This document shows, in pieces, positions 8,088 through 37,533 of a DNA stretch of 64,000 bases. Position numbers and translations under genes: made by a program. The notes beneath the pieces were generated by a model. The model saw only the letters and a list, made by a program, of their open reading frames with translations. It did no database searches and had not been told where the DNA came from. Source of the stretch: Bacteroidota bacterium (lineage in GTDB: Bacteria > Bacteroidota > Bacteroidia > 2-12-FULL-35-15); the NCBI GenBank assembly GCA_040389865.1, contig JAZJZM010000014.1:39531-103530 (forward strand), written 5' to 3'. Positions within the stretch are counted from its first letter, which is position 1. Every line of letters begins with the position of its first letter.

Positions 8088-8094
8088 TTTTCTA

Positions 8095-8225: not shown

Positions 8226-8242
8226 ATCTCTATTTTTTTATA

Positions 8243-13854: not shown

Positions 13855-14011
13855 TAGGCACAATTAAACAATTTTGCAATTTTTCAGTAGGCAATAAGGA
13901 TATGTTAAATTACATAATTGCCTACTGATTAATTGTAAAATTAAATAATTGCCTACTGAAAAATTGTTTTAAATTGCTCAATTAGGGTAAATAACCATAA
14001 ACACAGGTCAG

Positions 14012-14617: not shown

Positions 14618-14754
14618 TTTAAACCGAAAAATGAGAGTTTCAGGTTTCAGGTTCTGTGTTAAACAAACTTGAAATTTGAAACTTTTTTAAAATTTGAACA
14701 CATTTCTTATATTTTAAGGTCATTTATAGTAGTTAAACTCAAAAATCCAAAAAT

Positions 14755-15231: not shown

Positions 15232-15239
15232 AAATAAAA

Positions 15240-15280
15240 AGCCCCTCCCATCCTCCCCGAAGGGAGGGGTTTGTGTTTAC
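15240..15280 (+). terminator. intrinsic terminator
   Basis: 'cccctccc atcctccccgaa gggagggg' followed by 'tttgtgttt'. Confidence 0.6.
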
Positions 15281-15331
15281 ACCGGTATATAATCCAGGTT
15301 TTGTGTATTACCAACCCCTACTTTGGAGTAG

Positions 15332-16363
15332 TTGAGTGGGGCTTCTTTTATCAATTATCAAATGAGCGCAGCAAAAAAAAAGATCATTCGTAATGTAAAA
15401 ATTTCAGGCACCGGCTCTTATGCGCCTTCCGGAGTTTATACAAATGAATATCTTGAAACCATTGTAGATACTAAAGCTCCATGGATTTATGAAAACCTGG
15501 GTATCAAACAACGACATATTGTTGCAAAAGGAGAAACCACATCTGACCTTGGTGCAAAAGCAGCTCTCAAAGCCATTGCTGATGCTAAACTTAGCCCGGA
15601 AGACATTGACCTCATCATTTTTGCCACTACCACGCCTGATATGAAGGCGCCCTCCACAGCTTGTTTTGTTCAGGAAAAAATAGGCGCTTTTAATGCCGGA
15701 GCCTTTGATGTGGTAGCGGTTTGTACCGGTTTTTTATATGCGATAAGTCTGGCAACGGATTGTTTAAGCAATGGAAATTACAAACATATCCTTGTAATAG
15801 GAGCTGATACTTTTTCAACAATAACCGATTGGACGCGCAGAGATGCTGTGTTTTTTGGTGATGGTGCAGGAGCTGTTGTTCTTTCCCGTGTAGATGATGA
15901 ATCAGGTTTTGTTATTTCCAAAGTAGGTGCTGACGGACGTGGAAAGATGATCTGGCACATCCCTGCCGGTGGATCACAACACCCGATTGATGAAAACACA
16001 GCAAAAGACCGTTTGCAATATTGGCAAATGGATGGAAAAGGAATATACAACACCGCTGTGCGCGTATTACCACAGGTTATTACAGAAGTATTAGCCGATT
16101 CTGGATTAAAAATGGATGATATCAAATACATGATCCCTCATCAGCCAAGTCTTAAGATCCTTAAGAAAACTGCCGAACTTATAAATTTTGATTTTGATAA
16201 AGTATTGACCAATATGGATCAATACGGAAATACTTCTGCAGCATCTATTCCAATTTTATTGGATGAGACCAATAAAGCCGGAAAGTTAACCCGTGGCGAT
16301 ACCTTATTATTTGCCGCTGTTGGGTCTGGAATGGCTTGGGGTGCAATGATATTAAAATGGTAG
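15332..16363 (+). CDS. KAS-III (FabH)-like condensing enzyme
   Basis: Cys block 'DVVAVCTGFLYAISLA', His block 'IPHQPS', Asn block 'YGNTSAAS', giving an intact Cys-His-Asn triad. Its stop TAG abuts the phaC ATG. Confidence 0.8.
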   Translation: MSGASFINYQMSAAKKKIIRNVKISGTGSYAPSGVYTNEYLETIVDTKAPWIYENLGIKQRHIVAKGETTSDLGAKAALKAIADAKLSPEDIDLIIFATTTPDMKAPSTACFVQEKIGAFNAGAFDVVAVCTGFLYAISLATDCLSNGNYKHILVIGADTFSTITDWTRRDAVFFGDGAGAVVLSRVDDESGFVISKVGADGRGKMIWHIPAGGSQHPIDENTAKDRLQYWQMDGKGIYNTAVRVLPQVITEVLADSGLKMDDIKYMIPHQPSLKILKKTAELINFDFDKVLTNMDQYGNTSAASIPILLDETNKAGKLTRGDTLLFAAVGSGMAWGAMILKW

Positions 16364-18292
16364 ATGAAGAAAACTGAAATAAAAAACACTACAAAAATGA
16401 AGAGCAAGCCGAAAAGTCCGAAGTCTGAAATGAAAACTGAAAACACTAAAAAAACAGAAAAAGCTAAAACAACGGAAAATACTAAAAATACAGAAAAAAC
16501 CGAAAAAACAAAAATGGAAGAATTAACAGAGAGTATCACAAAAGCAAGTCAGAAAATTATTCAAAATTATTTTGAAAATAAATCAGGCGGTAACCATGAT
16601 AACAGGGATATAGCTCATACATTTGGTGAGTTAGGTACCAAATTAATGAACGAGCCCAAAGAAATGGAGAAAGTTCAGGAACTATACAAGGGATTCTTTA
16701 ACAGTCAGCAGGAATTATGGAAACGAATTACTGATCGCCAATCTAAACCGGAAGAATATAGTCCGGTTATTCAACCTGCCGAAGGTGATAAACGTTTTAA
16801 AGCACCTGAATGGGATGAAGCACCGTATTACTTTGATTTTGTTAAGCAAAATTACTTATTGGTTTCTCAATTAATGAAACAGATCATTGCTACTTCTGAA
16901 ATAGATGAAAAAGTTAAAAAGAAATTGAACTTTTATTCTCAACAGTATATTGATATGCTTTCGCCATCCAATTTTATTGCAACAAACCCTGAAGCAATTA
17001 AATTAGCACAGGAAACCAATGGTCAGAGTTTAATTGACGGATTTAAAAACTTATTGACCGATATCGAAAAAGGTGGTATCACTCAAACGGACATGTCAGC
17101 ATTTGAAGCTGGTAAGAATATAGCAACCACGCCTGGTGCAGTCGTTTTTGAAAATGAATTGATGCAACTTATTCAATACACCCCTTCTACTAAAAATGTG
17201 TTTGAAACACCTGTAGTAATAATACCACCTTGGATCAACAAATATTATATTCTTGATTTGCGTCCTGAAAATTCTTTTGCAAAATTTGTGGTGGATCAAG
17301 GATTTACAACCTTTATCATTTCCTGGAAAAATCCAAGTGCGGACTTACGTCACATCACTTTTGATGATTATGTGGAGATGGCTGCTTTAAAGGCTTTTGA
17401 AGTTGCAAAAACAATTACGAAATCTAAAAAAGTAAATACTATTGGATATTGTTTAGGTGGAACGTTGCTTAGCACTTCACTTGCTGTACTTGCTGCTCGT
17501 GAAAAAACAGAGGAAAACCCTGTTAACACTGCAACATTCCTTGCCACAATGATCGACTTTTCGGATGTTGGCCCAATGGGTGATGTTATTGACAATGCCT
17601 TATTAAAAAAACTAGAACGTGGCGAATTACTAGAGCAAGGCGTTATGCATGGTCATGATATGGAAAAAGCTTTCAATCTGATCAGAGCAAATGACCTGGT
17701 ATGGAGCTTTGTAATAAATAATTATTTGAAAGGCAAAACACCTACTCCTTTTGATGTTCTTTATTGGACAAATGATAATACGAATTTACCTGCAAAAATG
17801 TATTTGTATTATTTGAGATACATGGTTTTGGAAAATAAATTAAGCAGAAAAAATGCGTTGCGTATTTGTAATACCCCTATTGATATTGGCAAGATAGACA
17901 TTCCTGTTTACGTAATTGGCCTTCAGGAAGACCATATCGCACCACCACAAACAACATTTACAACAACAGAGCTTGTTAGTGGACCGGTTGAATTTATACT
18001 TGGCGGATCTGGTCACGTAATGGGTGTTGCTAATCCTCCATCAAAAAAGAAATATGGTTATTATTTAGATGGTAAACTGGAAAATGGATTTGCTGCATGG
18101 AAAGACTCTGCTAAATTTCACGAAGGTAGCTGGTGGACTGCATGGACAGAACGTCTTGCAAAAAAATCAGGAAAACAAATTGTAGCTGCTAAAACGTTGG
18201 GTAATGCTAAATTCAAAGTTATAGAAGCTGCTCCGGGCAGATATGTAAAAGAAAAATGTGCTCCGCACCATCCAGAAAATGGTAAGCATTAA
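16364..18292 (+). CDS. phaC: class-I poly(3-hydroxyalkanoate) synthase
   Basis: Lipase-box 'GYCLGGTLL' and alpha/beta-hydrolase core. 642 aa with a roughly 50-aa 'KTEK/TENTK' Lys-rich N-terminal extension. Confidence 0.85.
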   Translation: MKKTEIKNTTKMKSKPKSPKSEMKTENTKKTEKAKTTENTKNTEKTEKTKMEELTESITKASQKIIQNYFENKSGGNHDNRDIAHTFGELGTKLMNEPKEMEKVQELYKGFFNSQQELWKRITDRQSKPEEYSPVIQPAEGDKRFKAPEWDEAPYYFDFVKQNYLLVSQLMKQIIATSEIDEKVKKKLNFYSQQYIDMLSPSNFIATNPEAIKLAQETNGQSLIDGFKNLLTDIEKGGITQTDMSAFEAGKNIATTPGAVVFENELMQLIQYTPSTKNVFETPVVIIPPWINKYYILDLRPENSFAKFVVDQGFTTFIISWKNPSADLRHITFDDYVEMAALKAFEVAKTITKSKKVNTIGYCLGGTLLSTSLAVLAAREKTEENPVNTATFLATMIDFSDVGPMGDVIDNALLKKLERGELLEQGVMHGHDMEKAFNLIRANDLVWSFVINNYLKGKTPTPFDVLYWTNDNTNLPAKMYLYYLRYMVLENKLSRKNALRICNTPIDIGKIDIPVYVIGLQEDHIAPPQTTFTTTELVSGPVEFILGGSGHVMGVANPPSKKKYGYYLDGKLENGFAAWKDSAKFHEGSWWTAWTERLAKKSGKQIVAAKTLGNAKFKVIEAAPGRYVKEKCAPHHPENGKH

Positions 18293-19491
18293 TTGGAATA
18301 ACCATTAGATTTCAATATTAGTTTTGATCGTTAAAATTGAAGTTTCAGGTTTTTATGTTTGGTAACAAACATAAAAATCTGAAACTTTTTTTATTATTAA
18401 ACTGTGCTATAAATTCTTAAAACATCTTTTGAGCTTGAGTTCAATCAATAAAATAAAATTGAAAAAAGAATTTTTATTTTGACGTTTCCCTTTCTTGAAG
18501 AAATAAAAAGAGTGGCTCGGCCAAACTGTCAATACCTTCGTGTAATGTGGCTGCAGCCCATTTTGGTCTCATTGCCGTCTTGCTTTAGGACTTTAATCAT
18601 AACAAATTAGATAATTTTCGCTAACTTTACTATGTGAAAAAATTTGCTTACATATTTATTCTATTATCATGTTTTGGGTTTAGATCCATGCATGCAGAAT
18701 CTGTGCAAATGTTCAAGGCAAAGTACAGCTCTGAATTAAATAGATCTGAAAAAAAACATATTCAGAAGACTCCCGCGCTTTCATTAAGTATAATTACTTC
18801 GAAAGAGTCGGACGAAAATCCATTTTCAAAAAAAAGAAAGAGAGCAAAAAAAGGCCTATCACCAATCTTTTTTTGTCTTACAGATCAACCCCATTTAAAA
18901 ATTATTTTTTTTGAAATTGACTTAGTTTATGCTCCCCAGTCATTTCATTTCTCACACCTTCATTACGCCTGTGGTGAACGTGGTCCGCCCACCATTTCCC
19001 TTTCTTAAAACCCCACATTTTATTTATTCATTTTAGAACATAGCGCTATGCGTTTGTTCCGCCAACAATTTTAATCATGAAAAGCTGGAAAGTTGTCATA
19101 TACTATTTCGGAGATACACTCGAAGTAATAATCGAAGCAAGATCTTATGCTGAGGCCTGTTTCTCAGCAGAGCGGATCTATTCAGGTTGCACTATTAACG
19201 AAATTTCCGAGATCAAATATTAAAAAAAAATCCATTTTTTTTACCGAGACTAACAACATCACCTTTGGGATATGTTGGTTTTCTGTATGTAACAATTTGG
19301 AAAATAAGGGTTCACTATTGAAAAAACAGAGCATTAATTTTAATAAAAAATTAAAATCAGGCCTATACACAAACAGCATAAAACCATTGACATTAGACTG
19401 TTTCACTCATATATGTAATTAAAAAAAAAGCCCTCCTGAACATTAAAGATCTAATAGGGAATATTTTTTTATGATTCATATACGCAATTCG

Positions 19492-19499
19492 TATATTTG
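19492..19499 (+). promoter_or_regulatory. candidate -7 element 'TATATTTG' upstream of phaB, adjacent to the 'atacg-n5-cgtat' inverted repeat
   Basis: 'atacgcaattcgtatatttgtcatcg' lies about 55 bp upstream of the ATG at 19551. Confidence 0.35.
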
Positions 19500-19550
19500 T
19501 CATCGATTTAAAATTTAGAATTTAATCTTTAGACTTTTTCAATATATTTT

Positions 19551-20318
19551 ATGAGAGAAAAAAATAACAAAGTTGCATTGGTTACAGGCGGTACAGGTGG
19601 TATGGGTACTGCAATATGCGAAAGATTATATAAAGATGGATATACAGTAGTTGCCAATTACAAAGATTTTACCAAGGCGATGAAATGGAGAGAAGAAGCA
19701 AAAAAATGGCGTGATGACCAACTTAAAATGGGTTTTGATTTGAAAATTGTTCAAGGAGATATTTCAAATTGGAAATCTGCCGAAAAGATGATGAAGCAGA
19801 TCAATGATGAAGTTGGACAAGTGGATGTTTTGATAAATAATGCCGGTATAACAAGAGATTCAGCGCTTCATAAAATGAGCCCTGAGCAATGGTATGAAGT
19901 TATTGATACCAACCTTAACAGTGTATTTATTTGCACTCGCCTTGTAATTGAAGGTATGATAGCAAAAGGATGGGGACGTATTGTAAGTATCTCTTCTGTG
20001 AACGGACAAAAAGGACAATTCGGACAAACAAATTATGCTGCAACTAAAGCAGCTATGTATGGTTTCTCCAAATCACTTGCTTTGGAAGTTGCTAAAAAAG
20101 GTATTACTGTAAATACGGTTTCTCCGGGATATGTTGGCACTGCTATGGTAATGGCTATAAAAGAAGAAATACGTGATAAGATCATCGCTCAGGTACCACA
20201 AGGGCGCTTAGGTTCACCGGAAGAGATTGCAGGTGCTGTGGCTTATTTAACATCTGAGGAAGGACGTTATATTACAGGTGCCAATATTGCTATCAATGGT
20301 GGGTTGCATATGTTCTAA
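19551..20318 (+). CDS. phaB: SDR-family acetoacetyl-CoA reductase
   Basis: 'VALVTGGTGGMGTAI' Rossmann motif, 'NNAGIT', catalytic 'YAATKAA'. 255 aa with pha-locus context. Confidence 0.8.
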   Translation: MREKNNKVALVTGGTGGMGTAICERLYKDGYTVVANYKDFTKAMKWREEAKKWRDDQLKMGFDLKIVQGDISNWKSAEKMMKQINDEVGQVDVLINNAGITRDSALHKMSPEQWYEVIDTNLNSVFICTRLVIEGMIAKGWGRIVSISSVNGQKGQFGQTNYAATKAAMYGFSKSLALEVAKKGITVNTVSPGYVGTAMVMAIKEEIRDKIIAQVPQGRLGSPEEIAGAVAYLTSEEGRYITGANIAINGGLHMF

Positions 20319-20435: not shown

Positions 20436-21914
20436 CTACAACATCTTAAAATCCCCGGCCTCCATCAAATCTTCTTCAGTTAATAATCCTGCATCAATAA
20501 TATCTGATTTGTATTGAGCACGTAAAGCTCTGATCCATCTTTTGCCACGGTCGGATAGCTTAAAATCATCGGACATCAAACGGCCTCTCATTACAAGAAT
20601 CCCCAGATCTGCACCTTCGTATAAATAGCCATCTTTTTGTGTGATCTGAAAAAAAAATGCTTCATTATCATCTACCACGGATTGACGGTGAGCATCCATC
20701 TTTTTGAATTTTATTTTTCCATTTTTTTTCATTTCCCAAATTCCGGATGATGGAGCTTCGGTAACAATTGCTAATGTTTTTTTTGTATGCTTAATTATCA
20801 GTTGACTCCAACTGTCATTATTTTCAGGTTGTGCCCAGCGGTCAGTTAATTCCTTTACATCTATTTCGTAAGGAACATCCATCCATTCCAATAAGTGAAA
20901 CAGAAAAAGAGGCACATCTTTCATTGCAAACAGTGCATGATTAGTTATGGAGCTTGCCCCTGAAATCCTTGGATTCAGCTCACCAAGATAAATTTCACCA
21001 TTATCCTGATCGATTAAAAAATCAAGTTCAAAATATCCTTTATATCCTTCCTTACGAAGCTGATCACCAAAAAGCTGAGTATATTTTGTTGCTTTTTCTC
21101 GTATGTCGGGAGTAAAGGCATTTGCATAAACCTCATTTCCGCACCAACCGCCTTTGTATGGGGTTAATTCTTTAAAACCTACCAATTCGGTCATTAAAGG
21201 AGCAACCAGGGTTCCGTGTTTTGTAACACATCCTTCAATAGCAGTTCCATAACAATTGATACGCTTCATTATTTTAACTTCTTTCTCCTTAATGATTTCT
21301 TCTTTGTGAAGATCGAATTCTTCTTCATTGGAAATAAAAAAAGTTGTATGTCCCGAATCACCAAATGGGGTTTGAACCACTAAATTTTCACCAAGCTTTT
21401 CAGAAATTTTACGTAATTGAGCATAATTTTCTAGTGAAGAAAGTACATAGGGAACACAAGCTACACCTGCCTTTTCAGCTATCCGGTTTGTATTTACTTT
21501 ATTGTCGAGAAAAGTTCTAAGCTTAGCGGAAGGAAAACATACATCAAGCCCCAATACTTTTGCAGCCTCTTCTGTTTTTTCATTGAACATCAAAAACAAA
21601 GCCTTCCCGGCTTTTCCATCCACACTTCTTGATTTTATAAAATCTTTTACTTCTGCATGTTGAAGTAAATAGTTATTTATATCCTCAATGCTTTGGAATT
21701 CTTCGTGAAGCATCTCTACTTTCGGAGAAAACAAATTAGGATGTAAGCCGTCAAAAGAATCGATATGACTGATGTATTTAAAATTATTTATCCATTCATC
21801 AATCCCTAATAAATTAAAGCTGGTAGCACTTATAAAGTAAATAGGTGTTTCATTAGATTTGAAAAACTGTTTTATTTCAGATAATCCTTTTAAAGTTTTT
21901 TGCTCTTTCATCAT
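20436..21914 (-). CDS. ATP-grasp-fold ligase of unknown specificity
   Basis: 492 aa. Central block 'GENLVVQTPFGDSGHTTFFI...' and 'GYFELDFLIDQDNGEIYLGELNPRISG' resemble ATP-grasp B/C subdomains. Lies downstream of and co-oriented with the decarboxylase. Confidence 0.55.
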   Translation of the reverse strand: MMKEQKTLKGLSEIKQFFKSNETPIYFISATSFNLLGIDEWINNFKYISHIDSFDGLHPNLFSPKVEMLHEEFQSIEDINNYLLQHAEVKDFIKSRSVDGKAGKALFLMFNEKTEEAAKVLGLDVCFPSAKLRTFLDNKVNTNRIAEKAGVACVPYVLSSLENYAQLRKISEKLGENLVVQTPFGDSGHTTFFISNEEEFDLHKEEIIKEKEVKIMKRINCYGTAIEGCVTKHGTLVAPLMTELVGFKELTPYKGGWCGNEVYANAFTPDIREKATKYTQLFGDQLRKEGYKGYFELDFLIDQDNGEIYLGELNPRISGASSITNHALFAMKDVPLFLFHLLEWMDVPYEIDVKELTDRWAQPENNDSWSQLIIKHTKKTLAIVTEAPSSGIWEMKKNGKIKFKKMDAHRQSVVDDNEAFFFQITQKDGYLYEGADLGILVMRGRLMSDDFKLSDRGKRWIRALRAQYKSDIIDAGLLTEEDLMEAGDFKML

Positions 21915-21920: not shown

Positions 21921-22036
21921 TTTAGATCTTGGATTTTAGATGTTGGACGTTAGATGTTGGACGTTAGATGCTGGATTTTAGATGGGTTTAAATGTGTGGC
22001 TCTAATATCTAAAATCCTATATCTAACATCTAACTA
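21921..22036. repeat. palindromic 'tagatgttgg' satellite between the decarboxylase and ATP-grasp genes
   Basis: Forward 'ttttagatgttggacgttagatgttggacgttagatgctggattttagatgg' and inverted 'ctaaaatcctatatctaacatctaac'. Confidence 0.7.
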
Positions 22037-24778
22037 CTATTTCTTAGCTTTAGCTTTACTCTCATTTAACTGCATCATCGCTCCCATTGCAGAAATTGTG
22101 TTTTTACGATTTAGCGCCTCTTCAGTAAATACTTTCAAACCAAGTTCAACACGGTAACCATGAATTTCCTTTACATCCAAAGCGATCATGAATCGGATAA
22201 TTTCTTCACTAACCACCTGCCCCGGCACTAATATTGGAAAGCCTGGTGGATATGGGATTACAAAGGAAGTAGAAACCAGCTCTCTTTTATTTGCTAACTC
22301 ATTTAAACATTGACTCAAGGGAACATAATCACACAATTCCTCTTCATACGCTAAAAAAAATGCTTCTCTGATATTACCACCCGGTACTCCTGGCGAAGCC
22401 TGAAATGAACGATGGAAATAGCTGAAATCAGGTAATGGCGGCACATCATTTATCAATGACAAAATCTGTTTTTGTGAAATTTCAGATTCCCTTTTATTTA
22501 ATGATCGGTTACTTTCATCCAATTCATCAGCAATTTGTAACAACGCATTTATCAAAAATGTAACACTGCCCCGTGTTGTACCAATATTGGTCATTAACAA
22601 AACAGTGTTGCGTGATGTTTTATTTACCTGGATATTGAAACGATCCATTAAGTAAGTATTCTTAAACGCATCCCCTGTTATTCCTGCCTTTCCAACTGAA
22701 AGGGTAATTTTTGTCGGATCCAATACAAACTCATCTTTCTCCCAGGATTCTTCCATCCGGGCCCATCCATCTTCAACAGTGTAATATTCGTTTGGTCCGC
22801 ATTCACGGTACTCCTCAGGTATAGTGTCTTTTACGGTAAGTATATGAAAGTACTTATTTAATTTAGGGTGGTTTTGTATCGTAGAACGCACGATCATTGC
22901 CATCTCAATACTTTTTTCAACCAATTCATATCCTTCCAATTCAACCTGTCTGCGCCCAGCATCCATTGATGCTAAGATCTGATAATTGGGTGAAGTGGTG
23001 GTATGTGTCATGTAAGATTCCTGAAAATTATCTGCAACCCTGCGGCTATACTCTTCATCCCAGATCTGTATCATCGATCCCTGGCGGAAACAAGAAAGTG
23101 TTTTATGTGTACTTTGTGTTGCATACACCCTGATCTTAACCTTTTCCGGATCAGGCATAGAAGGGATTTCATTGGGTTTTAACCCGGCAATATGTTCTTT
23201 GTATTTTGTTTTATACTCTTCGCTCCGGTATTTATGAAATAATTTTTGTGCCACATACATTCCTGTTCGTTGCTTGTAGGTGTATGTAAAACTTGCAAAT
23301 GCAAACCAGGCTTCATCCCATAAAAAAACCATATCGGGTTTAATGGCAAGCACTGTTTCCATTACCTTTTCAACATTATATACCAATCCATCGAAAGTAC
23401 AATTGGTAAGTAATAACATTTTCACTTTATCTAATCTGCCCGCTGTTTTTAACGCGATCAGTTTTTCTTTAATAACTCTCAATGGCACTGCGCCATACAT
23501 CGAATATTCTTCAATAGGATAAGAATCCAAATACGCGGGAAATGCGCCTGCTAAAACAAGTCCATAGTGATGCGACTTATGACAATCTCTATCTACGAGT
23601 ACTACATCACCCGGTTTTATTAATGCTTGTTGAACAATTTTATTTGCAGTAGATGTTCCGTTGGTAACAAAAAATGTATGCTCTGCTCCATAAGCTTTCG
23701 CTGCTTTTTCCTGAGCCTTTTTTAATGGACCTTTGGGTTGTAAAAGCGAATCAAGACCTCCATTGGTTGCCGATGTTTCTGCTAAAAAAACATTTCTCCC
23801 ATAAAACTCACCAAAATCAGCTATCCATCGCGATTTAAATACGGAGTTCCCTCTGGATATCGGCAATGCGTGAAACACGCTTGTCGGTTTTTTGGAGTAT
23901 TCTGTTAATGCAGTATAGAAAGGCGTTTCGAAGCGTTCATTGATTCCACTAATAATTGTTAAGTGAAGCTCCTGAACATCTTCCATCCGATAAAATATTC
24001 TTCTGAATGCCTTTTGTGTAGAATCTTTTAAATGAGTTAATGAAGTATCGGTGATATAATAAATATCTAATTCAGGTCGGAACTGATGGATATATTTCCC
24101 TAAAAGAGGCCCGATTTCAGCATCCGTTACATCCGACAGATCGATTTTTAAAACATTTTGAATAAATGGTTTTATAAGTTTGGTAATATTTGTTGAGGAA
24201 TGCAAAGGCGCATATCTAATACATGCGGCTTGTATGTTGTAATTAAAAAAAAGACATATTAAGGCATCCTGAAAAGAATGCTGCACCACCAGATCATACG
24301 TTAAGGAACTATTCGGATTAATCAGTTCCTTTATTTTATTTTTAAGAACCATCTCTTCATTAGCAGACATGTCTTCTACATAGAGTACTTCAAAATAATT
24401 TTTTTTAGAGCTGCTTGAATGTTTATCTTTTTTACTGTCGAGAGGAATGCCGGCATTATAATTTTCACCCAACATCTCCGGGTGAGTTCTATAATTATCG
24501 CTTACCAAAAGTTGAACTATTTCAGCAACCTGATTGCTAACGGCTTTTAATTCGCCCTTTTTAACAGATTTAATAATTCTCCTGACAAGGGTAGACCCCG
24601 GAAAAGAAAAATATTGCTCGATGCTTAATAAGTTTTGGAGAATTTCGTTCAATTCACTTAAACGTTCATCTAATAATGTTTCATTTGATTGAATACGGGT
24701 TATCAGATTACTTTTTTCTTTAAGCTCATTCCACAAATCAATTCTTAACTGATTTATATTGTAATGTTTTGAATTCAT
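22037..24778 (-). CDS. large-form Orn/Lys/Arg decarboxylase family (PLP, fold-I, OKR_DC_1) protein with N-terminal extension
   Basis: PLP-lysine block 'YATQSTHKTLSCFRQGS' and 'FFVTNGTSTANKIV' major-domain motifs. 913 aa against about 715-755 for AdiA/LdcC, with about 120 extra N-terminal coiled-coil residues. Confidence 0.8.
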   Translation of the reverse strand: MNSKHYNINQLRIDLWNELKEKSNLITRIQSNETLLDERLSELNEILQNLLSIEQYFSFPGSTLVRRIIKSVKKGELKAVSNQVAEIVQLLVSDNYRTHPEMLGENYNAGIPLDSKKDKHSSSSKKNYFEVLYVEDMSANEEMVLKNKIKELINPNSSLTYDLVVQHSFQDALICLFFNYNIQAACIRYAPLHSSTNITKLIKPFIQNVLKIDLSDVTDAEIGPLLGKYIHQFRPELDIYYITDTSLTHLKDSTQKAFRRIFYRMEDVQELHLTIISGINERFETPFYTALTEYSKKPTSVFHALPISRGNSVFKSRWIADFGEFYGRNVFLAETSATNGGLDSLLQPKGPLKKAQEKAAKAYGAEHTFFVTNGTSTANKIVQQALIKPGDVVLVDRDCHKSHHYGLVLAGAFPAYLDSYPIEEYSMYGAVPLRVIKEKLIALKTAGRLDKVKMLLLTNCTFDGLVYNVEKVMETVLAIKPDMVFLWDEAWFAFASFTYTYKQRTGMYVAQKLFHKYRSEEYKTKYKEHIAGLKPNEIPSMPDPEKVKIRVYATQSTHKTLSCFRQGSMIQIWDEEYSRRVADNFQESYMTHTTTSPNYQILASMDAGRRQVELEGYELVEKSIEMAMIVRSTIQNHPKLNKYFHILTVKDTIPEEYRECGPNEYYTVEDGWARMEESWEKDEFVLDPTKITLSVGKAGITGDAFKNTYLMDRFNIQVNKTSRNTVLLMTNIGTTRGSVTFLINALLQIADELDESNRSLNKRESEISQKQILSLINDVPPLPDFSYFHRSFQASPGVPGGNIREAFFLAYEEELCDYVPLSQCLNELANKRELVSTSFVIPYPPGFPILVPGQVVSEEIIRFMIALDVKEIHGYRVELGLKVFTEEALNRKNTISAMGAMMQLNESKAKAKK

Positions 24779-24792: not shown

Positions 24793-24984
24793 GATGTTGG
24801 GGTATTAGATGTTGGATATTAGATGTTGGATATTAGATGTTGGATATTAGATGTTGGATGTTAGATGTTAGATGTTAGATGTTAGATGTTAGATATTGGA
24901 TGTTGGATGTTGGATGTTGGATATTTAATTCGGGTAAAGACACTTTTACAACCATAGCCTCCAACATCTAACATCCAACATCTA
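24793..24984. repeat. palindromic 'tagatgttgga' satellite array immediately upstream of the decarboxylase start
   Basis: About 13 tandem units 'attagatgttggat / gttagatgtta' over 24793-24925, then the inverted copy 'ccaacatctaacatccaacatcta' at 24961-24984. Confidence 0.75.
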
Positions 24985-24988
24985 TTCT

Positions 24989-25426
24989 TTAATGTTTCGA
25001 GTGAAGAGCCAACCTGTTTCCTTCTGAATCAATAAACAGGGCAAAATAACCAGCTGTATCGCTTAGGTAGCTCTTTTCCATCACTACCCTGCCGCCAGCT
25101 TCATTTACTTTCGATAATACGTTATTTAGATCAAATCCTCCATTTAAATAAATCAATGGACCAATTTCGCTCGGTACACAACCTTGTCCGGTCACTATTG
25201 CCCCTCCTATGCCGTTTTCGGCAGGAAAAAAGCCCATAGCAAATCCATTAAGTTCTACTGTTGTAATTTCGATCCCATAGATATAATTAAAAAAAGCAAC
25301 CGATCTGTAATGATTATAGGCCGGAATTTCAAACCAGGTCACAAAATCTTTGAATTCGGATTGTTCTTTCAATTTCAATAAATTGGCTTCTTTTATTTTT
25401 TCTTTTAAATTGACGGTGGATCCCAT
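24989..25426 (-). CDS. VOC/glyoxalase-family protein
   Basis: 145 aa, 'WFEIPAYNHYRSVAFFNYIYGIE' and a C-terminal 'GGRVVMEK...GYFALFIDSEGNRLAL' glyoxalase-like fold pattern. Confidence 0.65.
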   Translation of the reverse strand: MGSTVNLKEKIKEANLLKLKEQSEFKDFVTWFEIPAYNHYRSVAFFNYIYGIEITTVELNGFAMGFFPAENGIGGAIVTGQGCVPSEIGPLIYLNGGFDLNNVLSKVNEAGGRVVMEKSYLSDTAGYFALFIDSEGNRLALHSKH

Positions 25427-25776
25427 TGCTTTTGAATATTTTGTTTTTAATAATTCTATGTCCTGAAATAGAGCTGGGCTCTATAATTTGAAATATTTTG
25501 TCGTTATTCGCAGGCTGCTTTTACCCGTTTTTTACAGGAAATTTAATCAATTACTTTACACTCAAATTTACATTAAATATAACAATTAAAGCGATTAAAC
25601 GATTATTTAGACTTACGAAGACATTAGCGTTATGTTGATAAAGATACAGAAAGGTATTTAATATAAATTCAAATAAAACTCTAAATTTATAACCTGTTAA
25701 AAAAAAGCGAAATTTGATTTTATATTAAAACAAGGTCAGTTTAAAAAATTATCACATAAAATTTTTACAAAATATT

Positions 25777-27984
25777 TTGGCAACAACACTCGAAAAACTA
25801 AAGACAAATTATTGGTTTCAATCTATTTTGAATAGCTATAGTTTGATGTTTTTTTCTTTAAATAATGTTCTTGCGGCTATTATTTTAATAGTGACTTTTT
25901 TTTCGCCTTATGTAGGATTGTCGGGCTTGGCAGCAATCGTTCTAATAAACCTATCTGCCTATTTTATAGGATTTAACAGGGATGAAATACTGAACGGACT
26001 TTTTGGTTTCAATGCCTTATTTCTTGGCCTTGCTTTGGGGTATGAGTTTTCATTTAACCTACCCTTTATAGCATTATTTATAACAGCGGTTTTGATCCTG
26101 CTTCTAATTACTGTATGGCTGAAAGGATTGTTTTCCCTATACAATTTGCCATTTTTATCCTTTCCATTCATTCTTACGTATTGGATCATTTCTTTAGCAG
26201 CCTCCAATCTTACAAATGTTTATTTAGATGAAGATCACATTTATATTGCAAATGAACTGATACTTAATCAATCCTCTTCATTTTATCAGTTCGTTCATTC
26301 TTTCGACAACATCAACGTTTTCCCGTTTATTCTTATTTACTTTAAAACGCTTGCAGGTACTTTTTTTCAAAGTAGTGTTTTAGGCGGTATGTTAATTGCA
26401 GCCGGATTACTTTACTTTTCACGTATTGCTTTTTCCCTGAGCCTCATAGGTTTTTCTTCTGCTTTTTTTTTCTATTCAATATTTGGTGCGGATGTAAATG
26501 ACTTAAATTATAATTTACTTGGATCCAACTTCATGTTTCTCGCAATTGCGATTGGTTGCTTTTTTCTAATTCCCAACACCTATAGTTATATAACCGTTCT
26601 TATTCTCACACCTATACTAATGTTGGTATTATTATCATTTGGTAAAATGTTGGCAGTTTTTCAACTCAAAGCCTTTACCTTTTCATTTAGTGTTATCTGC
26701 ACCGCTTTCCTCTTTACATTGAATCAACGATGGTTTCAAAAGTATTTACATGTTGTTACCATTCAGTATTTTTCAGCAGAAAAAACCATTTATAAATACC
26801 TGAATTCCATTCAGCGTTTCAAAAACGAACATCTTCTTAAGATCATACTTCCATTTTCCGGAGAATGGAATGTAAGCCAGGGCTATGATGGAAAAATAAC
26901 GCATTTAGGCGATTGGAGTAAAGCCTTGGATTTTGTGATCGTTGATTCCAAATCCAAAACCTATCATGAGCCATCCAACTACAGAGAAGGTTTTTCCACC
27001 GAAAATTTTTATTGCTATAATAAAGAGATCTTTTCTCCTTATGATGGTTATGTGTATGACATCATTAATACTGTTGAAGAAAATGATGTTGGGGAAGTGG
27101 ATACAGCGCATAACTGGGGAAATACTGTTATTCTGAATCATCTTAATGGATTGTTTTCACAAATAAGTCACATTAAAAAAGATTCATTTAATGTTTTTAT
27201 CGGACAATATATTTATAAGGGCTCATTTATTGCAACCTGCGGAAATTCGGGACGTTCGCCTGAACCGCATATCCATTTTCAATTGCAAACAATTCCCTCT
27301 ATTGGGGCAAAAACATTAGCCTACCCTATTTCATATTTTATTGAACGGGAAGGAAAAAAGAAAACGCTAAAAATTTCGGAGATCCCTAAAGAAGGCTCCT
27401 TCATAAGTAATGTGCAGGTAAATGAAATATTGATCTTAAGCTTTTCATTTTTACCGGGACATAAAATTACCTTTCAAAAGGAAAACACCGCTTCTACTAT
27501 CATCTGGGAAGTTTTTACAGATGCCTGGAACAGAACGTATATTTATTGCCAGGAAAGCAAATCATACGCTTACTTTATCAATGATGGTGTAATGTTATAT
27601 TTTACCGATTTTGAAGGGGATCGAAAATCATTGTTGTTTAATTTCTATCTGGCGGCTTACAGGCAGCTGCTTGGATATTATGAAAACATTAAAATAAAAG
27701 ACAATGTTCCTTTAATTCATTTCAATAGTAAATGGCTACAGTTTTTTCAGGATTTTGTTGCTCCTTTTTACCTGTTCACGAAAGCCAATTTCAGCTCCAC
27801 ATTTACGTATACTGATAATATTTATGCCCCGCAAAAATTAATTATTAATGCTGAAGTTGAAACTAAACTTATAAACTATACATTTAAAAAAATTAATTTT
27901 GAGTTTGAATTAAAGGACAATAAAATTCATCGTTTCACCATTCATGGTAAAAATAAAACCGAATCCTATATACTCAATCGATAA
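25777..27984 (+). CDS. polytopic membrane protein fused to an M23 (LytM) peptidase domain
   Basis: TTG start. Residues 1-330 form about 9-10 TM helices. M23 blocks 'HLGDWSKALDFV', 'DGYVYDI' and 'GNSGRSPEPHIHFQLQ', then about 230 further residues. Confidence 0.7.
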   Translation: MATTLEKLKTNYWFQSILNSYSLMFFSLNNVLAAIILIVTFFSPYVGLSGLAAIVLINLSAYFIGFNRDEILNGLFGFNALFLGLALGYEFSFNLPFIALFITAVLILLLITVWLKGLFSLYNLPFLSFPFILTYWIISLAASNLTNVYLDEDHIYIANELILNQSSSFYQFVHSFDNINVFPFILIYFKTLAGTFFQSSVLGGMLIAAGLLYFSRIAFSLSLIGFSSAFFFYSIFGADVNDLNYNLLGSNFMFLAIAIGCFFLIPNTYSYITVLILTPILMLVLLSFGKMLAVFQLKAFTFSFSVICTAFLFTLNQRWFQKYLHVVTIQYFSAEKTIYKYLNSIQRFKNEHLLKIILPFSGEWNVSQGYDGKITHLGDWSKALDFVIVDSKSKTYHEPSNYREGFSTENFYCYNKEIFSPYDGYVYDIINTVEENDVGEVDTAHNWGNTVILNHLNGLFSQISHIKKDSFNVFIGQYIYKGSFIATCGNSGRSPEPHIHFQLQTIPSIGAKTLAYPISYFIEREGKKKTLKISEIPKEGSFISNVQVNEILILSFSFLPGHKITFQKENTASTIIWEVFTDAWNRTYIYCQESKSYAYFINDGVMLYFTDFEGDRKSLLFNFYLAAYRQLLGYYENIKIKDNVPLIHFNSKWLQFFQDFVAPFYLFTKANFSSTFTYTDNIYAPQKLIINAEVETKLINYTFKKINFEFELKDNKIHRFTIHGKNKTESYILNR

Positions 27985-28080
27985 TGGATAATGGATATTG
28001 GATAATTGATAATGGACAATCACCTAACAACTAACAACCATCAACTAGCAACTAACAACCATCAACTAACAACCAAACTA
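27982..28080. repeat. 'ataatggata' and 'caactaacaa' tandem word repeats
   Basis: 'ataatggataatggatattggataattgataatggac' followed by 'cacctaacaactaacaaccatcaactagcaactaacaaccatcaactaacaacc', the reverse complement of the 10137 array. Confidence 0.7.
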
Positions 28081-28082: not shown

Positions 28083-28697
28083 ATGAAACTATTAAAAAAA
28101 TCGATCAGCGTTCTTGTAATTTTAACATCATTAAATTTACATGCTCAGGACAAGGCGTTAATGAATGCTTTTAGCCAATCTTACGACTATGAAGCAATTC
28201 AAAAATACGAAGTGGCAATATCAACACTAAATGCTGTTTATAGCCCAACATCGTATGAAATTAATATTAGGATGGGATGGTTAAATTACCTTGCAGGTAA
28301 ACATAAAGAATCAATAACCTTTTATCAAAAAGCGATAGCCTTGATGCCCGCGGCCACCGAACCATTATGGGCCATCATTAATCCACTGACTAAATTAGAA
28401 AACTGGAATGAAATTGAAAAAACCTATCTCTCAATTTTAAAATTAGATTCGAAAAATGCAACGGCAAATTATAATTTGGGCATGATCTATTATTATCGTA
28501 AAGATTATGTAAATGCAAAGAAACACTTTGATACATCTTTAAATCTTTATCCATTTGGATATAATAATATGCTGATGAGTGCCTGGACAAATTACTTCCT
28601 TGGAAATAAAAATCAGGCAATAACTTTATTCAACAAATCATTATTATACAGTCCTAATAACAAATCCGCTTTAGAAGGATTAAGTTTGATCAAATAA
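28083..28697 (+). CDS. secreted TPR-repeat protein (paralog 1)
   Basis: Signal peptide and TPR-like repeats. Paralogous to 30071-30691 (shared 'GWLNY.AG', 'ANYN/KMG.I.Y.RKD', 'LYPFGY', 'EGLSL.K'). Confidence 0.65.
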   Translation: MKLLKKSISVLVILTSLNLHAQDKALMNAFSQSYDYEAIQKYEVAISTLNAVYSPTSYEINIRMGWLNYLAGKHKESITFYQKAIALMPAATEPLWAIINPLTKLENWNEIEKTYLSILKLDSKNATANYNLGMIYYYRKDYVNAKKHFDTSLNLYPFGYNNMLMSAWTNYFLGNKNQAITLFNKSLLYSPNNKSALEGLSLIK

Positions 28698-28760
28698 GCC
28701 AAAAAAATATCAATTTTGAAATTCCGGGAGACGATTTAAAATCGTCTCCTCTTCAGCTGA

Positions 28761-30083
28761 ATGTATAAACTATTTTTATTTATTTATTTATTTTTCTTTT
28801 TTGCCAAAGGGCAGGCTCAAACCATGGCCAATTCAGCCATGGTTGATCAAAATAGCACCGAGCTATATTTTGACGAAAACTGGACTGGTCTGGCAAAATA
28901 TGGAGAAAAAGCAATTGCAAACGGATACGATTATTTTTATTTACGCAACAGGACAGGTATCGCCTATTACCAACAAAAAAAGTATAAAAAAGCGGTCAGG
29001 CATTTTGAAAAAGCGGTTAAATTTAATTCGGGTGATAAACTTGCACTCGAATATCTATATTACAGCTATATTTTTTCCGGTAGAGAAAGTGAAGCGCGGG
29101 CATTAACTTCACTATTCCCTGTAGAGTTAAAAAAACGTATAAATCCACCTAAAAACAAAATCATTGAAAGTGTTTATTGCGAGGGCGGAGTTGCTTCGGG
29201 AAACTTATATTCTATTTATAAAAACACAGATATTAATGGGCCGGCAAATATTTATGGCGAAGCTACTATCACCAATAATATGCAGTATTGGCATTTCGGA
29301 TTAAACCATCAGTTGGGCAATAAATTGTCTGTTTATCATGGTTATAGCAATATCAAAATAGATCTGACAAGAAGGATTGGCATTTACCTGAAAGATACTC
29401 TTGACAATTATAGCCTTACACAGCACGATTATTATTTAAGCTGCATGCAGCAATTCAAACATTTTGCTCTTTCTCCGGCTGTTCATTTTATTAATGTGAA
29501 TTTTGGTAAATTAACTGCCAGCAAAAACCTATTCACAAATAAATATGTTTTTACTAAAAAAGACACCTCATTTATAAATTATGCCACTTCGCTTTCTCTA
29601 ATAAAAAACATTGGAATTTATACCTATAATTTATCCGCAGGATTTGCTCAATTAAATGGGCTTACACAAATACAAGCCGGACTGGCCCTTACCTATTATC
29701 CCTTTAAAAATACAAACATTTATGGAACGTCCTCTCTTGTTTATTTGAATGAAAACTATACAAATCGTATTATTTCCATACAAAAAATAGGATTTAAAGT
29801 AATGCCAAAACTTTGGACAGAAATTGGAGTAACATACGGAAACCTTCAAAACTATAGCGAAAACAATGCTTTTGTCGTTTTCAATACCGGAGATAAAATT
29901 TTGTACAAATGTGGAATTTCTATTACATCCCCTTTATTAAAACATTTTGAATTCTCCGTACGGTATGATTACTTTAACCGGGAAAACACCTATTATCGCA
30001 CGAATGATCTATTTAAGACAGAATCATTAAGAATTAATTATAAAACCCAAACAATAATAGGAGGAGTAAAATGGAAAATCTAA
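28761..30083 (+). CDS. secreted protein with N-terminal TPR-like region and C-terminal beta-rich (putative outer-membrane barrel) domain
   Basis: Signal peptide 'LFFFFAKGQAQ'. About 100 aa TPR-like, then about 300 aa of alternating hydrophobic/polar Y/N/T-rich strands ending '...GGVKWKI'. Overlaps the next gene's ATG (30071). Confidence 0.5.
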   Translation: MYKLFLFIYLFFFFAKGQAQTMANSAMVDQNSTELYFDENWTGLAKYGEKAIANGYDYFYLRNRTGIAYYQQKKYKKAVRHFEKAVKFNSGDKLALEYLYYSYIFSGRESEARALTSLFPVELKKRINPPKNKIIESVYCEGGVASGNLYSIYKNTDINGPANIYGEATITNNMQYWHFGLNHQLGNKLSVYHGYSNIKIDLTRRIGIYLKDTLDNYSLTQHDYYLSCMQQFKHFALSPAVHFINVNFGKLTASKNLFTNKYVFTKKDTSFINYATSLSLIKNIGIYTYNLSAGFAQLNGLTQIQAGLALTYYPFKNTNIYGTSSLVYLNENYTNRIISIQKIGFKVMPKLWTEIGVTYGNLQNYSENNAFVVFNTGDKILYKCGISITSPLLKHFEFSVRYDYFNRENTYYRTNDLFKTESLRINYKTQTIIGGVKWKI

Positions 30084-30691
30084 AAAAAATAATATTTATA
30101 ACATTGATCGCATTTTCTTCCGTAAGTACTATTTATTCACAAGAAGGATCACTACAAGAGGCTTTTAACAACAGTTACACCTTTGAGTATAACGGTGAAT
30201 ACACAAAAGCGGTTGAAGCAATAAAAAAAGGGTATGACGAAAAATCATATGGGACCAATTTGAGAGCAGGCTGGTTGAATTATGAAGCGGGACTTTACAT
30301 AGAATCCCAAAATTATTATAAAAAAGCAATTGCATTAAAGTCAAATTCACTTGAAGCAAAATTTGGATATATATATCCTGCAACTGCCTTAGGCAATATG
30401 GATCAGGTAATAGCGCAATACAAAAAAATCCTGGAAATAGACCCACAAAATTCAACAGCAAATTACAAGATGGGATTAATTTTTTACGATAGAAAAGATT
30501 TTAAATCTGCTTATAATTATTTTGAAAAAGTAGTAGATCTTTACCCTTTTGGATACGATGCGTTATTAATGTATGCCTGGTCAAACTATCAACTTGGAAA
30601 AAATAAGGAAGCAAAAATTTTATTTAAAAACGCCATGCTGTTATCGCCTTACAATCAATCTGCAATAGACGGATTAAGTTTAACTAAGTGA
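30071..30691 (+). CDS. secreted TPR-repeat protein (paralog 2)
   Basis: Signal peptide plus the same TPR architecture as 28083-28697. Translationally coupled to the upstream gene. Confidence 0.65.
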   Translation: MENLKKIIFITLIAFSSVSTIYSQEGSLQEAFNNSYTFEYNGEYTKAVEAIKKGYDEKSYGTNLRAGWLNYEAGLYIESQNYYKKAIALKSNSLEAKFGYIYPATALGNMDQVIAQYKKILEIDPQNSTANYKMGLIFYDRKDFKSAYNYFEKVVDLYPFGYDALLMYAWSNYQLGKNKEAKILFKNAMLLSPYNQSAIDGLSLTK

Positions 30692-30710
30692 GTTTAAGTT
30701 AAAGCACTGT

Positions 30711-30762
30711 TATACTGAACTTGTTTCAGCATCTAAAGAGATTCCGAACAAGTTCGGAATGA
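30711..30762. repeat. double-hairpin repeat, copy 1
   Basis: 'atactgaacttgtttcagcatc ... attccgaacaagttcggaat'. An inverted copy sits at 37454-37503. Confidence 0.7.
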
Positions 30763-30858
30763 CGTTTTCTTCATGAATGTTCGTGGTTGGTTCTCTCATC
30801 TCAATACTATCAAGGATTCTTCGTAAATTTGTATATTATCACTTAAATTATTGATTAA

Positions 30859-37410: not shown

Positions 37411-37453
37411 TTCCCTTGTGATTAGTTAAGTTTGCTTTGTTCTATTGATTGGC

Positions 37454-37503
37454 ATTCCGAACTTGTTTCGGAATCTCATGGATGCTGAAACAAGTTCAGC
37501 ATG
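37454..37503. repeat. double-hairpin repeat, copy 2 (reverse complement of 30711-30762)
   Basis: 'attccgaacttgtttcggaat ctcatgg atgctgaaacaagttcagcat'. Confidence 0.7.
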
Positions 37504-37533
37504 ACCTCGATCAATTTATGATTTACTATGTCG

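Follow-up and report, generated by a model that had tools for sequence, protein, structure and literature searches.

Which pathway is served by an outer-membrane barrel with its own TPR domain, encoded between the genes of two secreted TPR proteins? The question is raised by genes A, B and C in a 64,000-nucleotide stretch of DNA from a Bacteroidota bacterium, here analysed as a whole and referred to as the window. Based on their neighbourhood in many genomes, we find that A-B-C is the outer half of a widespread Bacteroidota gene module, and that the triad is not itself the functional unit. We tentatively suggest, with confidence a little short of even, that A, B and C form the periplasmic and outer-membrane arm of an envelope-spanning small-molecule module.

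Gene organization and the outer-membrane protein B

Table 1. Features of the module in the window
Feature	Positions	Strand	Description	Basis
G1	20436-21914	-	492-aa ATP-grasp ligase, PRK06524 family	NCBIfam NF005096
K	22037-24778	-	913-aa fold-type-I PLP decarboxylase, Orn/Lys/Arg family	Pfam OKR_DC_1, E 4.7e-79
v	24989-25426	-	145-aa protein, encoded first in the divergent v-K-G1 operon	no family match
Divergent intergenic region	25427-25776		between the v-K-G1 (-) and U-A-B-C (+) operons	gene layout
U	25777-27984	+	735-aa inner-membrane protein, directly upstream of A	domain structure
Heptamer tandem arrays	27976-28020, 28024-28075		AATGGAT x6.4 and CTAACAA x7.1, filling the U-A spacer	
A	28083-28697	+	204-aa predicted secreted soluble TPR protein	ORF list, Pfam, signal peptide
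B	28761-30083	+	440-aa predicted outer-membrane protein, TPR + beta-barrel	ORF list, structure model
C	30071-30691	+	206-aa predicted secreted soluble TPR protein	ORF list, Pfam, signal peptide
Terminator-like stem + T-run	30741-30760	+	3' of C, within inverted repeat 30709-30763	

A preliminary description of this locus had proposed a cluster of three genes in which two secreted TPR paralogs flank a TPR-barrel fusion protein. All three ORFs are present as described (Table 1). A and C align over their full length with 42% identity (E 8e-55), each has several above-threshold Pfam TPR matches, and signal peptides are found at the N-termini of A, B and C (...LNLHA/QD, ...AKGQA/QT and ...STIYS/QE, respectively), in agreement with secreted paralogs. 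A lipobox cysteine was looked for in the three signal peptides and none was found; from their sequences, A and C are predicted to be secreted proteins that are not lipoproteins. As also described previously, the end of B overlaps the start of C, by 13 nt (30071-30083). Because this overlap and one between U and B are seen at many loci, we suggest that these genes are translationally coupled. The context of B fits an envelope-spanning pathway.

In the AF2 structure model (pLDDT 94), B consists of a signal peptide, ~3 TPR repeats (residues 25-127) and a 14-stranded beta-barrel (residues 137-439). The model thus bears out the proposed TPR-barrel fusion and argues with confidence for an outer-membrane barrel and against a soluble protein. 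Conservation is highest in the periplasmic TPR domain and in one long loop, the long loop at residues 360-378 being conserved. The barrel falls into the FadL/TodX/OmpG structural class, and its best structural matches, FadL, TodX, CymA and OmpG, are uptake channels, while BcsC, PelBC and PgaA come no higher than mid-list. Sequence identity to the 14-stranded barrels FadL, TodX, OmpG, CymA and PorV is 6-9%, and the TPR domain of B occupies the place of the N-terminal hatch of FadL and TodX. The Toluene_X Pfam family (PF03349) has no match in the B family, which places B outside the FadL/TodX family. Scans of B and 77 family members with Pfam and NCBIfam, and a profile search against PDB sequences, returned TPR matches alone, and no barrel Pfam family matches B or any of the 77 members.

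U is the conserved inner-membrane partner

The cluster had been described as having no known partner next to it. However, U, directly upstream of A, is a strictly conserved partner. In the databases U is annotated as a plain "urea transporter". It comprises a urea-transporter (UT) fold (residues ~12-316), a linker helix, an M23 domain (~360-505) and a beta-rich C-terminal domain (~518-735). The UT part is a complete 5+5 inverted-repeat fold that scores above the PF03253 family threshold and has intact pore motifs. The M23 domain has the M23 fold with zinc ligands and catalytic histidines and is catalytically intact, while the C-terminal domain is an orphan with weak LolA-like matches. Thus, U differs from the urea transporters dvUT, UT-B and UT-A by an extension of ~420 residues that contains the M23 and orphan domains, and by an operon shared with an outer-membrane barrel and TPR proteins.

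In UT proteins both termini are cytoplasmic. The charge bias across 62 U homologs (N-terminus +1.15, mid-loop -1.81, post-UT linker +3.35), together with this known topology, leads us to place the M23 and C-terminal domains of U in the cytoplasm, and no additional transmembrane helix was found after the UT fold. With this predicted topology, the periplasmic docking surface for the TPR proteins would be a single loop of ~40 residues. A cytoplasmic M23 domain would be, to our knowledge, without precedent: every solved M23/LytM structural match of this domain is extracytoplasmic and is either a cell-wall enzyme or a regulator of such an enzyme.

Two exchangeable enzyme sets are encoded beside U

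On the opposite strand to U-A-B-C, the window carries the divergent operon v-K-G1, in which G1 is the final gene. G1 matches NF005096 with E 1e-222 and 739.6 bits (cutoff 684), has a weak Pfam CPSase_L_D2 match, is annotated as "biotin carboxylase-like" and is strongly conserved, its best 120 homologs being at least 74% identical. K has ~130-160 additional N-terminal residues, and its best NCBIfam matches (LdcC, CadA, SpeC and AdiA) are all far under the family cutoffs. v has no Pfam or NCBIfam match and matches glyoxalase-family chains in the PDB weakly (E 0.057-0.16), so that a VOC/glyoxalase-fold enzyme is a tentative candidate identity; it was found at 46 loci, in every case between K and U. 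Together, v, K and G1 lie beside U in 35 of the 56 loci with sufficient upstream sequence.

This type 1 set of OKR_DC_1 decarboxylase, PRK06524 ATP-grasp ligase and 145-aa protein has a type 2 counterpart, in which an Orn_DAP_Arg_deC decarboxylase is accompanied by an ATPgrasp_Ter ligase and a PqqD-like protein. The type 2 decarboxylase is non-homologous to K, takes its place in the locus, and is closest in NCBIfam to FslC and LysA with scores under the family cutoffs. Because the enzyme sets have been replaced non-homologously, we argue that the chemistry of ligation and decarboxylation is part of the function of the module. A search of 22 loci for a precursor peptide gave no conserved small ORF upstream of the PqqD-like gene; the apparent precursor ORFs that might have indicated a RiPP pathway in type 2 loci are alternative frames of the 3' end of the regulator gene.

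A carboxylate-amine ligase is likewise paired with a diamino-acid decarboxylase in the pathways for rhizoferrin (FslA/FslC) and staphyloferrin B (SbnH), and FslC, an N-citrylornithine decarboxylase, represents, alongside LysA, the nearest family to the type 2 decarboxylase. The tabtoxin pathway (TabA, TblF, TabP) combines a ligase and a decarboxylase with a zinc peptidase as well. The siderophore pathways use NIS synthetases, whereas the module has ATP-grasp ligases, and neither a TonB receptor nor other siderophore genes are conserved near the module. We regard the likeness to these ligase-then-decarboxylase pathways as a lead.

The module is conserved as U, B and one TPR protein

Loci were collected with the U alignment, because the B alignment has no stretch conserved enough for a locus scan. 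Relatives of U are present in 471 species-level genomes; among 80 listed of these, the carriers are all metagenome-assembled genomes of uncultured Bacteroidota or Ignavibacteriota. Among the 70 loci in which 2.6 kb or more of sequence follows U, 68 have B no more than 1.5 kb downstream and 69 have a downstream TPR gene. U is likewise present in 5/5 loci fetched via B homologs. Where at least 5.2 kb upstream of U was available, one of the two pairs of ATP-grasp ligase and PLP decarboxylase is encoded beside U (55 of 56 loci).

The earlier view of the three genes as a unit stands in part: B and a TPR gene do occur together in other genomes, but the arrangement with a TPR gene on either side of B is not constant. 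It is found in 15 type 1 loci with U and B on the contig, compared to 34 with the upstream TPR gene between U and B, and is confined to a sublineage. Downstream of B, a TPR gene in the same direction occurs at 15 type 1 and 28 type 2 loci. In type 1 loci the constant TPR gene is the one in the upstream position, held here by A. As for the type 2 loci, the TPR protein encoded 3' of B in locus L001 is 51% identical to C and 41% identity is found between A and the type 2 TPR protein of this locus; BLAST favours C over A as the ortholog of the type 2 TPR gene, and a neighbour-joining tree of the TPR proteins does not cleanly resolve the choice. Overall, U, B and a single TPR protein make up the constant set, which is usually accompanied by an ATP-grasp/decarboxylase pair.

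Examination of 85 loci identified U, TPR proteins, decarboxylases, ATP-grasp ligases, PqqD, the 145-aa protein, acyltransferase-3 and LytTR/kinase genes as conserved neighbours. Genes for glycosyltransferases, synthases or c-di-GMP are not among them, in keeping with the lack of an adjacent glycosyltransferase noted previously. Near the module there is also no conserved gene for a lipoprotein or other secreted-protein cargo, and no conserved downstream catabolic genes. A literature search for the domain combination and for PRK06524 returned nothing relevant to the module.

A model for an envelope-spanning conduit

In the model that we favour, U would function as a channel of UT fold in the inner membrane with its M23 and C-terminal domains facing the cytoplasm, the soluble TPR proteins A and C would be present in the periplasm, probably as adaptors, and B would contribute the 14-stranded barrel in the outer membrane together with its own periplasmic TPR domain. 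In the cytoplasm, the ATP-grasp ligase and the PLP-dependent basic-amino-acid decarboxylase encoded next to the module would generate a small amide-linked amine, i.e. a decarboxylated conjugate of the Lys/Orn/DAP type. The M23/C-terminal part of U would bind or trim this conjugate at the membrane, the UT-like pore would let it through to the periplasm, from where the TPR proteins together with B would move it out through the outer membrane. What we observe are the domain structures, a strict linkage of the genes, two alternative enzyme sets, and catalytic and pore motifs that are intact; we infer how U is oriented in the membrane, which way transport runs, what the cargo is and which proteins contact each other. 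Known UT channels pass very small neutral solutes and nothing larger, and a conjugate larger than urea may therefore not fit. Three further observations speak against a conduit of this kind: the nearest structural relatives of B are uptake channels and not exporters, the PqqD-like gene is not accompanied by a conserved precursor peptide, and at two loci (L045 and L084) no enzyme genes adjoin U, B and a TPR gene.

There is a real, if less than even, prospect that the module represents a previously undescribed pathway with a UT-M23 inner part, a TPR-barrel outer part and a ligase/decarboxylase metabolite as dedicated cargo. To the same degree, it is conceivable that the B family is a new family of outer-membrane barrels with soluble TPR adaptors as part of this new pathway. 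If so, hundreds of genomes of Bacteroidota and Ignavibacteriota would contain "urea transporter" genes that are mislabelled parts of a dedicated system for secretion or for the envelope, the role of M23 peptidases would extend beyond cell-wall cleavage, and a new outer-membrane barrel family would have a defined set of partners. The U-B-TPR core would then be a compact three-component system for crossing two membranes without an ABC, RND or TonB machine, and the two swappable enzyme modules would give an experimental handle on a probably polyamine-like metabolite of environmental bacteria.

Alternative functions of the module

The structural matches of B to uptake channels would suit traffic in the opposite direction, in which a small nitrogenous solute or peptide enters through B, passes via the TPR proteins to the UT channel and is then trapped and converted by the cytoplasmic M23 domain, decarboxylase and ligase. 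As passive channels, UT proteins would suit uptake driven by metabolic trapping; moreover, an imported amide or peptide could be hydrolysed by the M23 domain in its predicted cytoplasmic location. However, ATP-grasp enzymes are ligases and fit a catabolic route poorly, conserved catabolic genes are not found downstream of the module, and we know of no soluble TPR proteins that act as solute-binding shuttles. We consider uptake unlikely, though worth keeping in view. Alternatively, the M23 domain of U could be periplasmic and cut peptidoglycan, while A and C, and B through its TPR domain, would scaffold or regulate it. TPR proteins that scaffold M23 endopeptidases are known; NlpI serves MepM/MepS in such a way, and FtsEX serves EnvC. 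The solved relatives of the M23 domain, all of which cut peptidoglycan or regulate its cleavage, and the weak LolA-like matches of the C-terminal domain fit a role in cell-wall remodelling or tethering, to which the decarboxylase and ligase would furnish a diamine modification, the ATP-grasp enzyme possibly amidating a stem-peptide carboxylate with the diamine. Against this, charge bias and canonical UT topology place the M23 domain in the cytoplasm, there is no transmembrane helix after the UT fold to reverse this, and the conserved, intact UT pore would be left without a role, making this function improbable.

Two established systems resemble B in outline. Like B, the exopolysaccharide export systems PgaA, BcsC, AlgK/AlgE and PelB/PelC combine a TPR module and an outer-membrane barrel as the outer arm of a pathway, with the barrel gene co-transcribed with that of an inner-membrane partner, and the preliminary description had assigned B to this logic. 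The barrels of the PgaA/BcsC/AlgE type have 16-18 strands and the systems many TPR repeats, whereas B has 14 and ~3, respectively. No PgaA (TIGR03939/NF007468), BcsC (NF008520) or AlgE model matches B or its family; the PgaA and BcsC models are matched by A and C alone, weakly and via generic TPR. The inner-membrane partner of B combines a UT-fold channel with an M23 domain, and no glycosyltransferase, polysaccharide synthase or c-di-GMP gene is conserved at the 85 loci. The assignment and a polysaccharide cargo are therefore not upheld, and we regard an exopolysaccharide porin as scarcely credible. In layout B also resembles Slam (type XI, TXISS) translocons, which have an N-terminal TPR domain, a 14-stranded barrel and a similar size (PMC8406197), and A and C have weak, sub-threshold TPR_Slam matches. 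That B delivers proteins or lipoproteins to the cell surface nevertheless appears very unlikely: the DUF560 profile matches none of the 77 B-family members at E <= 1, the adjacent lipoprotein or secreted cargo gene that is a feature of Slam has no counterpart beside B, and neither A nor C has a lipobox. Moreover, DUF560 is described as proteobacterial (PMC8406197), while the B family is from Bacteroidota and Ignavibacteriota with a different partner set, a channel and small-molecule enzymes.

Regulation and repeats

The divergent intergenic region presumably holds a control region shared by the two operons. Neither the window nor the sequence ahead of U contains a match to an Rfam family or a riboswitch, the sole weak RNA matches being plant microRNA models on a heptamer-repeat hairpin, and a sigma-70 scan was uninformative (40 sites vs 30.5 expected). 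Many type 2 loci have a gene pair for a LytS-type kinase and a LytTR regulator ahead of the operon, as well as a LytTR-style direct repeat; a repeat of this type is absent from the intergenic region of the window.

Repeats do lie on both sides of A-B-C, as noted previously, but the upstream arrays are inside the operon and do not bound it. Similar heptamer arrays are present elsewhere in the window (21921-21984 and 24793-24922). Such arrays are missing from, or altered in, relatives that are 95-96% identical; the U-A arrays are absent in a 96%-identical relative (L006) and partly present in L007, and the U-A spacer is 19 nt in L005. Because the arrays vary among near-identical relatives and sit inside the operon, we reject the idea that the flanking repeats are borders of a mobile element; they consist of heptamer microsatellites that vary between strains, and of a hairpin that resembles a terminator. 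This hairpin (30709-30763) bears a short dispersed motif that occurs again at 37451 and 37488.

B is predicted to be a TPR and β-barrel protein between two secreted TPR paralogs

The three ORFs of the preliminary description, encoding the paralogous secreted TPR proteins A and C with B between them, are all present on the + strand where it had placed them, and the end of B indeed overlaps the start of C, by 13 nt. As had been proposed, A and C are TPR paralogs, related over their full lengths (42% identity, E 8e-55) and each with several above-threshold TPR Pfam matches. All three proteins have N-terminal signal peptides, none of which contains a lipobox cysteine; on this basis, A and C are expected to be soluble in the periplasm.

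Features of the locus and of the adjacent polyhydroxyalkanoate (PHA) cluster
Feature	Position	Strand	Description
phasin-like protein	13102-13854		PHA cluster
FabH-like ketoacyl synthase	15332-16363		PHA cluster
PhaC synthase	16364-18292		PHA cluster
short-chain dehydrogenase	19551-20318		PHA cluster
G1	20436-21914	-	ATP-grasp, PRK06524 "biotin carboxylase-like" family, NF005096, E 1e-222
K	22037-24778	-	913 aa, OKR_DC_1 Orn/Lys/Arg-type decarboxylase
v	24989-25426	-	145 aa, weak resemblance to glyoxalase family
U	25777-27984	+	window counterpart of UT + Peptidase_M23 gene
A	28083-28697	+	204 aa, TPR Pfam matches, signal peptide
B	28761-30083	+	440 aa, signal peptide, TPR + barrel
C	30071-30691	+	206 aa, TPR Pfam matches, signal peptide

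B, which databases name "hypothetical" or "TPR protein", has one significant TPR_1 match (residues 63-90), and neither Pfam nor NCBIfam has a match to its ~300 C-terminal residues. The AlphaFold2 model built from an alignment of 77 B homologs (pLDDT 94.2, pTM 0.85) comprises a signal helix, then seven helices (residues 25-127) that make up ~three TPR repeats and, at residues 137-439, 14 beta strands. In agreement with the barrel model, the top Foldseek match is FadL (E 1.6e-10), with BcsC, PelBC and PgaA at ranks 14, 21 and 28. No barrel family in Pfam, such as DUF560, Toluene_X or those for PgaA/BcsC, has a match among the 77 family members, and TPR proteins are the only matches of the B profile among PDB sequences. 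Together, the model, the Foldseek search and the absent family matches indicate that B is a genuine TPR and barrel outer-membrane protein of a sequence-orphan family, as had been suspected, and not a soluble protein. Conservation is highest in the TPR domain (residues 29-112) and in the single long loop (residues 360-378), which is extracellular loop 6 when counted by strands; the remaining loops have only 2-5 residues.

The conserved unit includes U

The cluster had been described as having no known secretion partner adjacent to it. This view has to be revised, because U, a protein with a urea-transporter (UT) fold, an M23 peptidase and a C-terminal domain, is encoded directly upstream of A. 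In 5/5 loci fetched via B homologs (33-61% identical to B; from uncultured Bacteroidota, a Bacteroidales MAG and Ignavibacteria), a ~700-740-aa UT + Peptidase_M23 protein is encoded directly upstream of the B-bearing genes. Pattern scanning of a single genome for each GTDB species identified U relatives in 471 genomes, and the best 80 of these loci, all from MAGs, were kept for synteny, scored by tblastn and all-against-all clustering. B is located <=1.5 kb downstream of U in 68/70 informative loci, the exceptions being L049, with a two-ORF insertion ahead of B, and L024, in which the ~2.6 kb of sequence past U is barely enough to show B; a TPR gene (T) is downstream of U in 69/70. The real unit is larger than the A-B-C triad and takes in U.

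Among 56 loci informative for the enzyme pair upstream of U, 35 have a type 1 layout, 20 a type 2 layout and one (L045) neither, and the two never occur together in one locus. Type 1, as in the window, has an opposite-strand, divergent operon G1 < K < v, followed by U > T > B > optional extra T, while type 2 is one operon, PqqD > ATP-grasp > decarboxylase > U > B > T. In type-1 loci with U and B both on the contig, a TPR gene lies between U and B in 34 and a second co-directional one follows B in only 15; in the 28 type-2 loci, it always follows B. By these counts, the T-B-T triad is a sublineage elaboration. Thus, of the anticipated co-occurrence, the pairing of B with a TPR gene stands, while the complete triad is limited to a sublineage. 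The type-2 TPR protein of L001 is 51% identical to C and 41% to A, and a quick tree of TPR genes did not tell apart which of them is its ortholog.

There is no enzyme pair upstream in L045 and L084, where U, B and a TPR gene have unrelated neighbours: L045 has a UvrB-like helicase and a mechanosensitive channel, and L084 has an outer-membrane barrel protein. The L084 locus, from a Dysgonomonadaceae MAG, has its B homolog divided between two overlapping ORFs of 174 and 285 aa (7145-8475), possibly because the copy is decaying or the assembly is wrong there. The contigs of L022 and L061 carry this Bacteroidota-type module in MAGs labelled 'Candidatus Saccharibacteria' and 'Actinomyces viscosus', probably reflecting binning contamination or mislabelling.

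Two non-homologous enzyme pairs flank the same core

The type-2 decarboxylase belongs to the fold-type-III Orn_DAP_Arg_deC family and is unrelated to K; it is nearest to FslC (N-citrylornithine decarboxylase) and LysA, both below cutoffs. The type-2 ligase is of the ATPgrasp_Ter type and has only the ATP-grasp motif in common with G1. Two non-homologous ligase/decarboxylase pairs thus flank the same U-B-T core, and no other observation hints as strongly that the function involves carboxylate-amine ligation together with decarboxylation of a basic or diamino acid. No conserved precursor peptide was found beside the PqqD-like gene of type-2 loci.

A further gene, found in 23 type-1 loci (L010:2844-3938, for example) and often placed divergently beside G1, encodes a multi-pass membrane protein of the Acyl_transf_3/HGSNAT family (~344-364 aa; cluster median 344, 364 in L010). 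The window lacks this gene, whose product might serve the pathway as an accessory acyltransferase. A PHA cluster (13102-20318) lies just upstream of the window's G1 gene.

U is predicted to place its peptidase in the cytoplasm

The AlphaFold2 model of U (pLDDT 92.1), named "urea transporter" in databases, aligns end to end with dvUT, and an LP-box-like LPFLSFPF motif is kept. H376, D385, H465, H498 and H500, as well as the NWGN and SGxS motifs, are invariant in 62 diverse homologs, which argues that the peptidase is probably active. A full-library search with residues 330-735 (E <= 1e-30) gave 459 clusters, nearly all of 700-740 aa and matched at ~325-720, and the shorter matches inspected were truncated gene calls; the M23 and C-terminal module thus appears to exist essentially only fused to UT. 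In UT proteins, the N- and C-termini are known to be cytoplasmic and the mid-loop to be external. Combined with this topology, the family-wide charge bias (N-terminus +1.15, loop 116-128 +1.0, mid-loop -1.81, loop 236-247 -1.18, post-UT linker +3.35) predicts that the M23 and C-terminal domains are cytoplasmic.

P0336 (1305 aa, high-GC organism) has the U domains (UT, M23 and C-terminal) and a B-like barrel within a single ORF, separated by a signal-peptide-like hydrophobic segment and then TPR repeats. The ORF may be a genuine fusion, or a stop codon or frameshift may have been missed; should the hydrophobic segment act as a signal anchor, U would necessarily have its C-terminal domain in the cytoplasm.

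A tentative model of the module

We tentatively read the module as an envelope-spanning conduit, the best of several readings, although one to which we give somewhat less than an even chance. In this model, a product made by cytoplasmic ligase and decarboxylase chemistry would be handled at the membrane by the M23 and C-terminal parts of U, cross via the UT-like pore, and then be taken past the outer membrane by the B barrel together with TPR adaptors in the periplasm. That the same components form an uptake route is unlikely, and we are still more doubtful of a peptidoglycan-remodelling or tethering complex, in which the M23 domain would be periplasmic rather than cytoplasmic.

In architecture, B most resembles Slam/TXISS proteins, in which a 14-stranded barrel is likewise joined to a TPR domain (PMC8406197); however, B gives no sequence match to DUF560 and no cargo gene accompanies it, and a Slam-like protein translocon is improbable. 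Exopolysaccharide export, implied by the earlier comparison with PgaA/BcsC/AlgE-type porins, has hardly any probability; B lacks three features that define the class. The B barrel is of the same structural type as FadL/OmpG but without a hatch domain. As the outer arm of an envelope pathway, built from TPR repeats and a barrel, the finding belongs to a known sort of arrangement, while the whole module has a fair chance of being a new kind of pathway; literature searches for the domain combination or for PRK06524 gave nothing relevant.

Regulation and repeats

Many type-2 loci have genes for a LytS-type kinase and a LytTR regulator ahead of the operon. Often after this pair, ~84 nt upstream of the PqqD start, is a conserved direct repeat, CCGATAC(A/T)TTT-N10-CCGATACATTT, in L056, L057, L059, L060 and L062 (degenerate in L050 and L069-L072), whose spacing is typical of LytTR regulator sites. 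Gene pair and repeat suggest two-component control and inducible expression of the type-2 operon; the window has neither.

Heptamer arrays fill the U-A spacer of the window (27976-28075), and similar arrays are found in the G1-K (21921-21984) and K-v (24793-24922) spacers, the latter with inverted copies at 24963-24984. Because they are missing from the 96%-identical relative L006 and different in the 95%-identical L007, the arrays are strain-variable, hypervariable microsatellites rather than mobile-element borders. In L005, the U-A spacer is just 19 nt. The repeat elements that had been noted on both sides of the cluster are these variable arrays upstream and, after C, a terminator-like hairpin.

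The arrays at 24793-24984 can pair as a long hairpin, which leads to spurious plant microRNA matches, and further tandem arrays occupy intergenic spacers at 52590-52635 and 61541-61612. Across all these spacers, the array units are of 7-8 nt (TTAGATG/TTGGATG, AATGGAT, CTAACAA, AGTTGGAG). A short dispersed motif, GAACAAGTTCGGAATGAC, has three copies (30746-30763, 37451-37468 on the - strand, and 37488-37505) versus 0.03 expected, each within a hairpin, and looks like a REP-like element doubling as a terminator. At 39915-40076, an 82-nt unit is tandemly duplicated with 92% identity.
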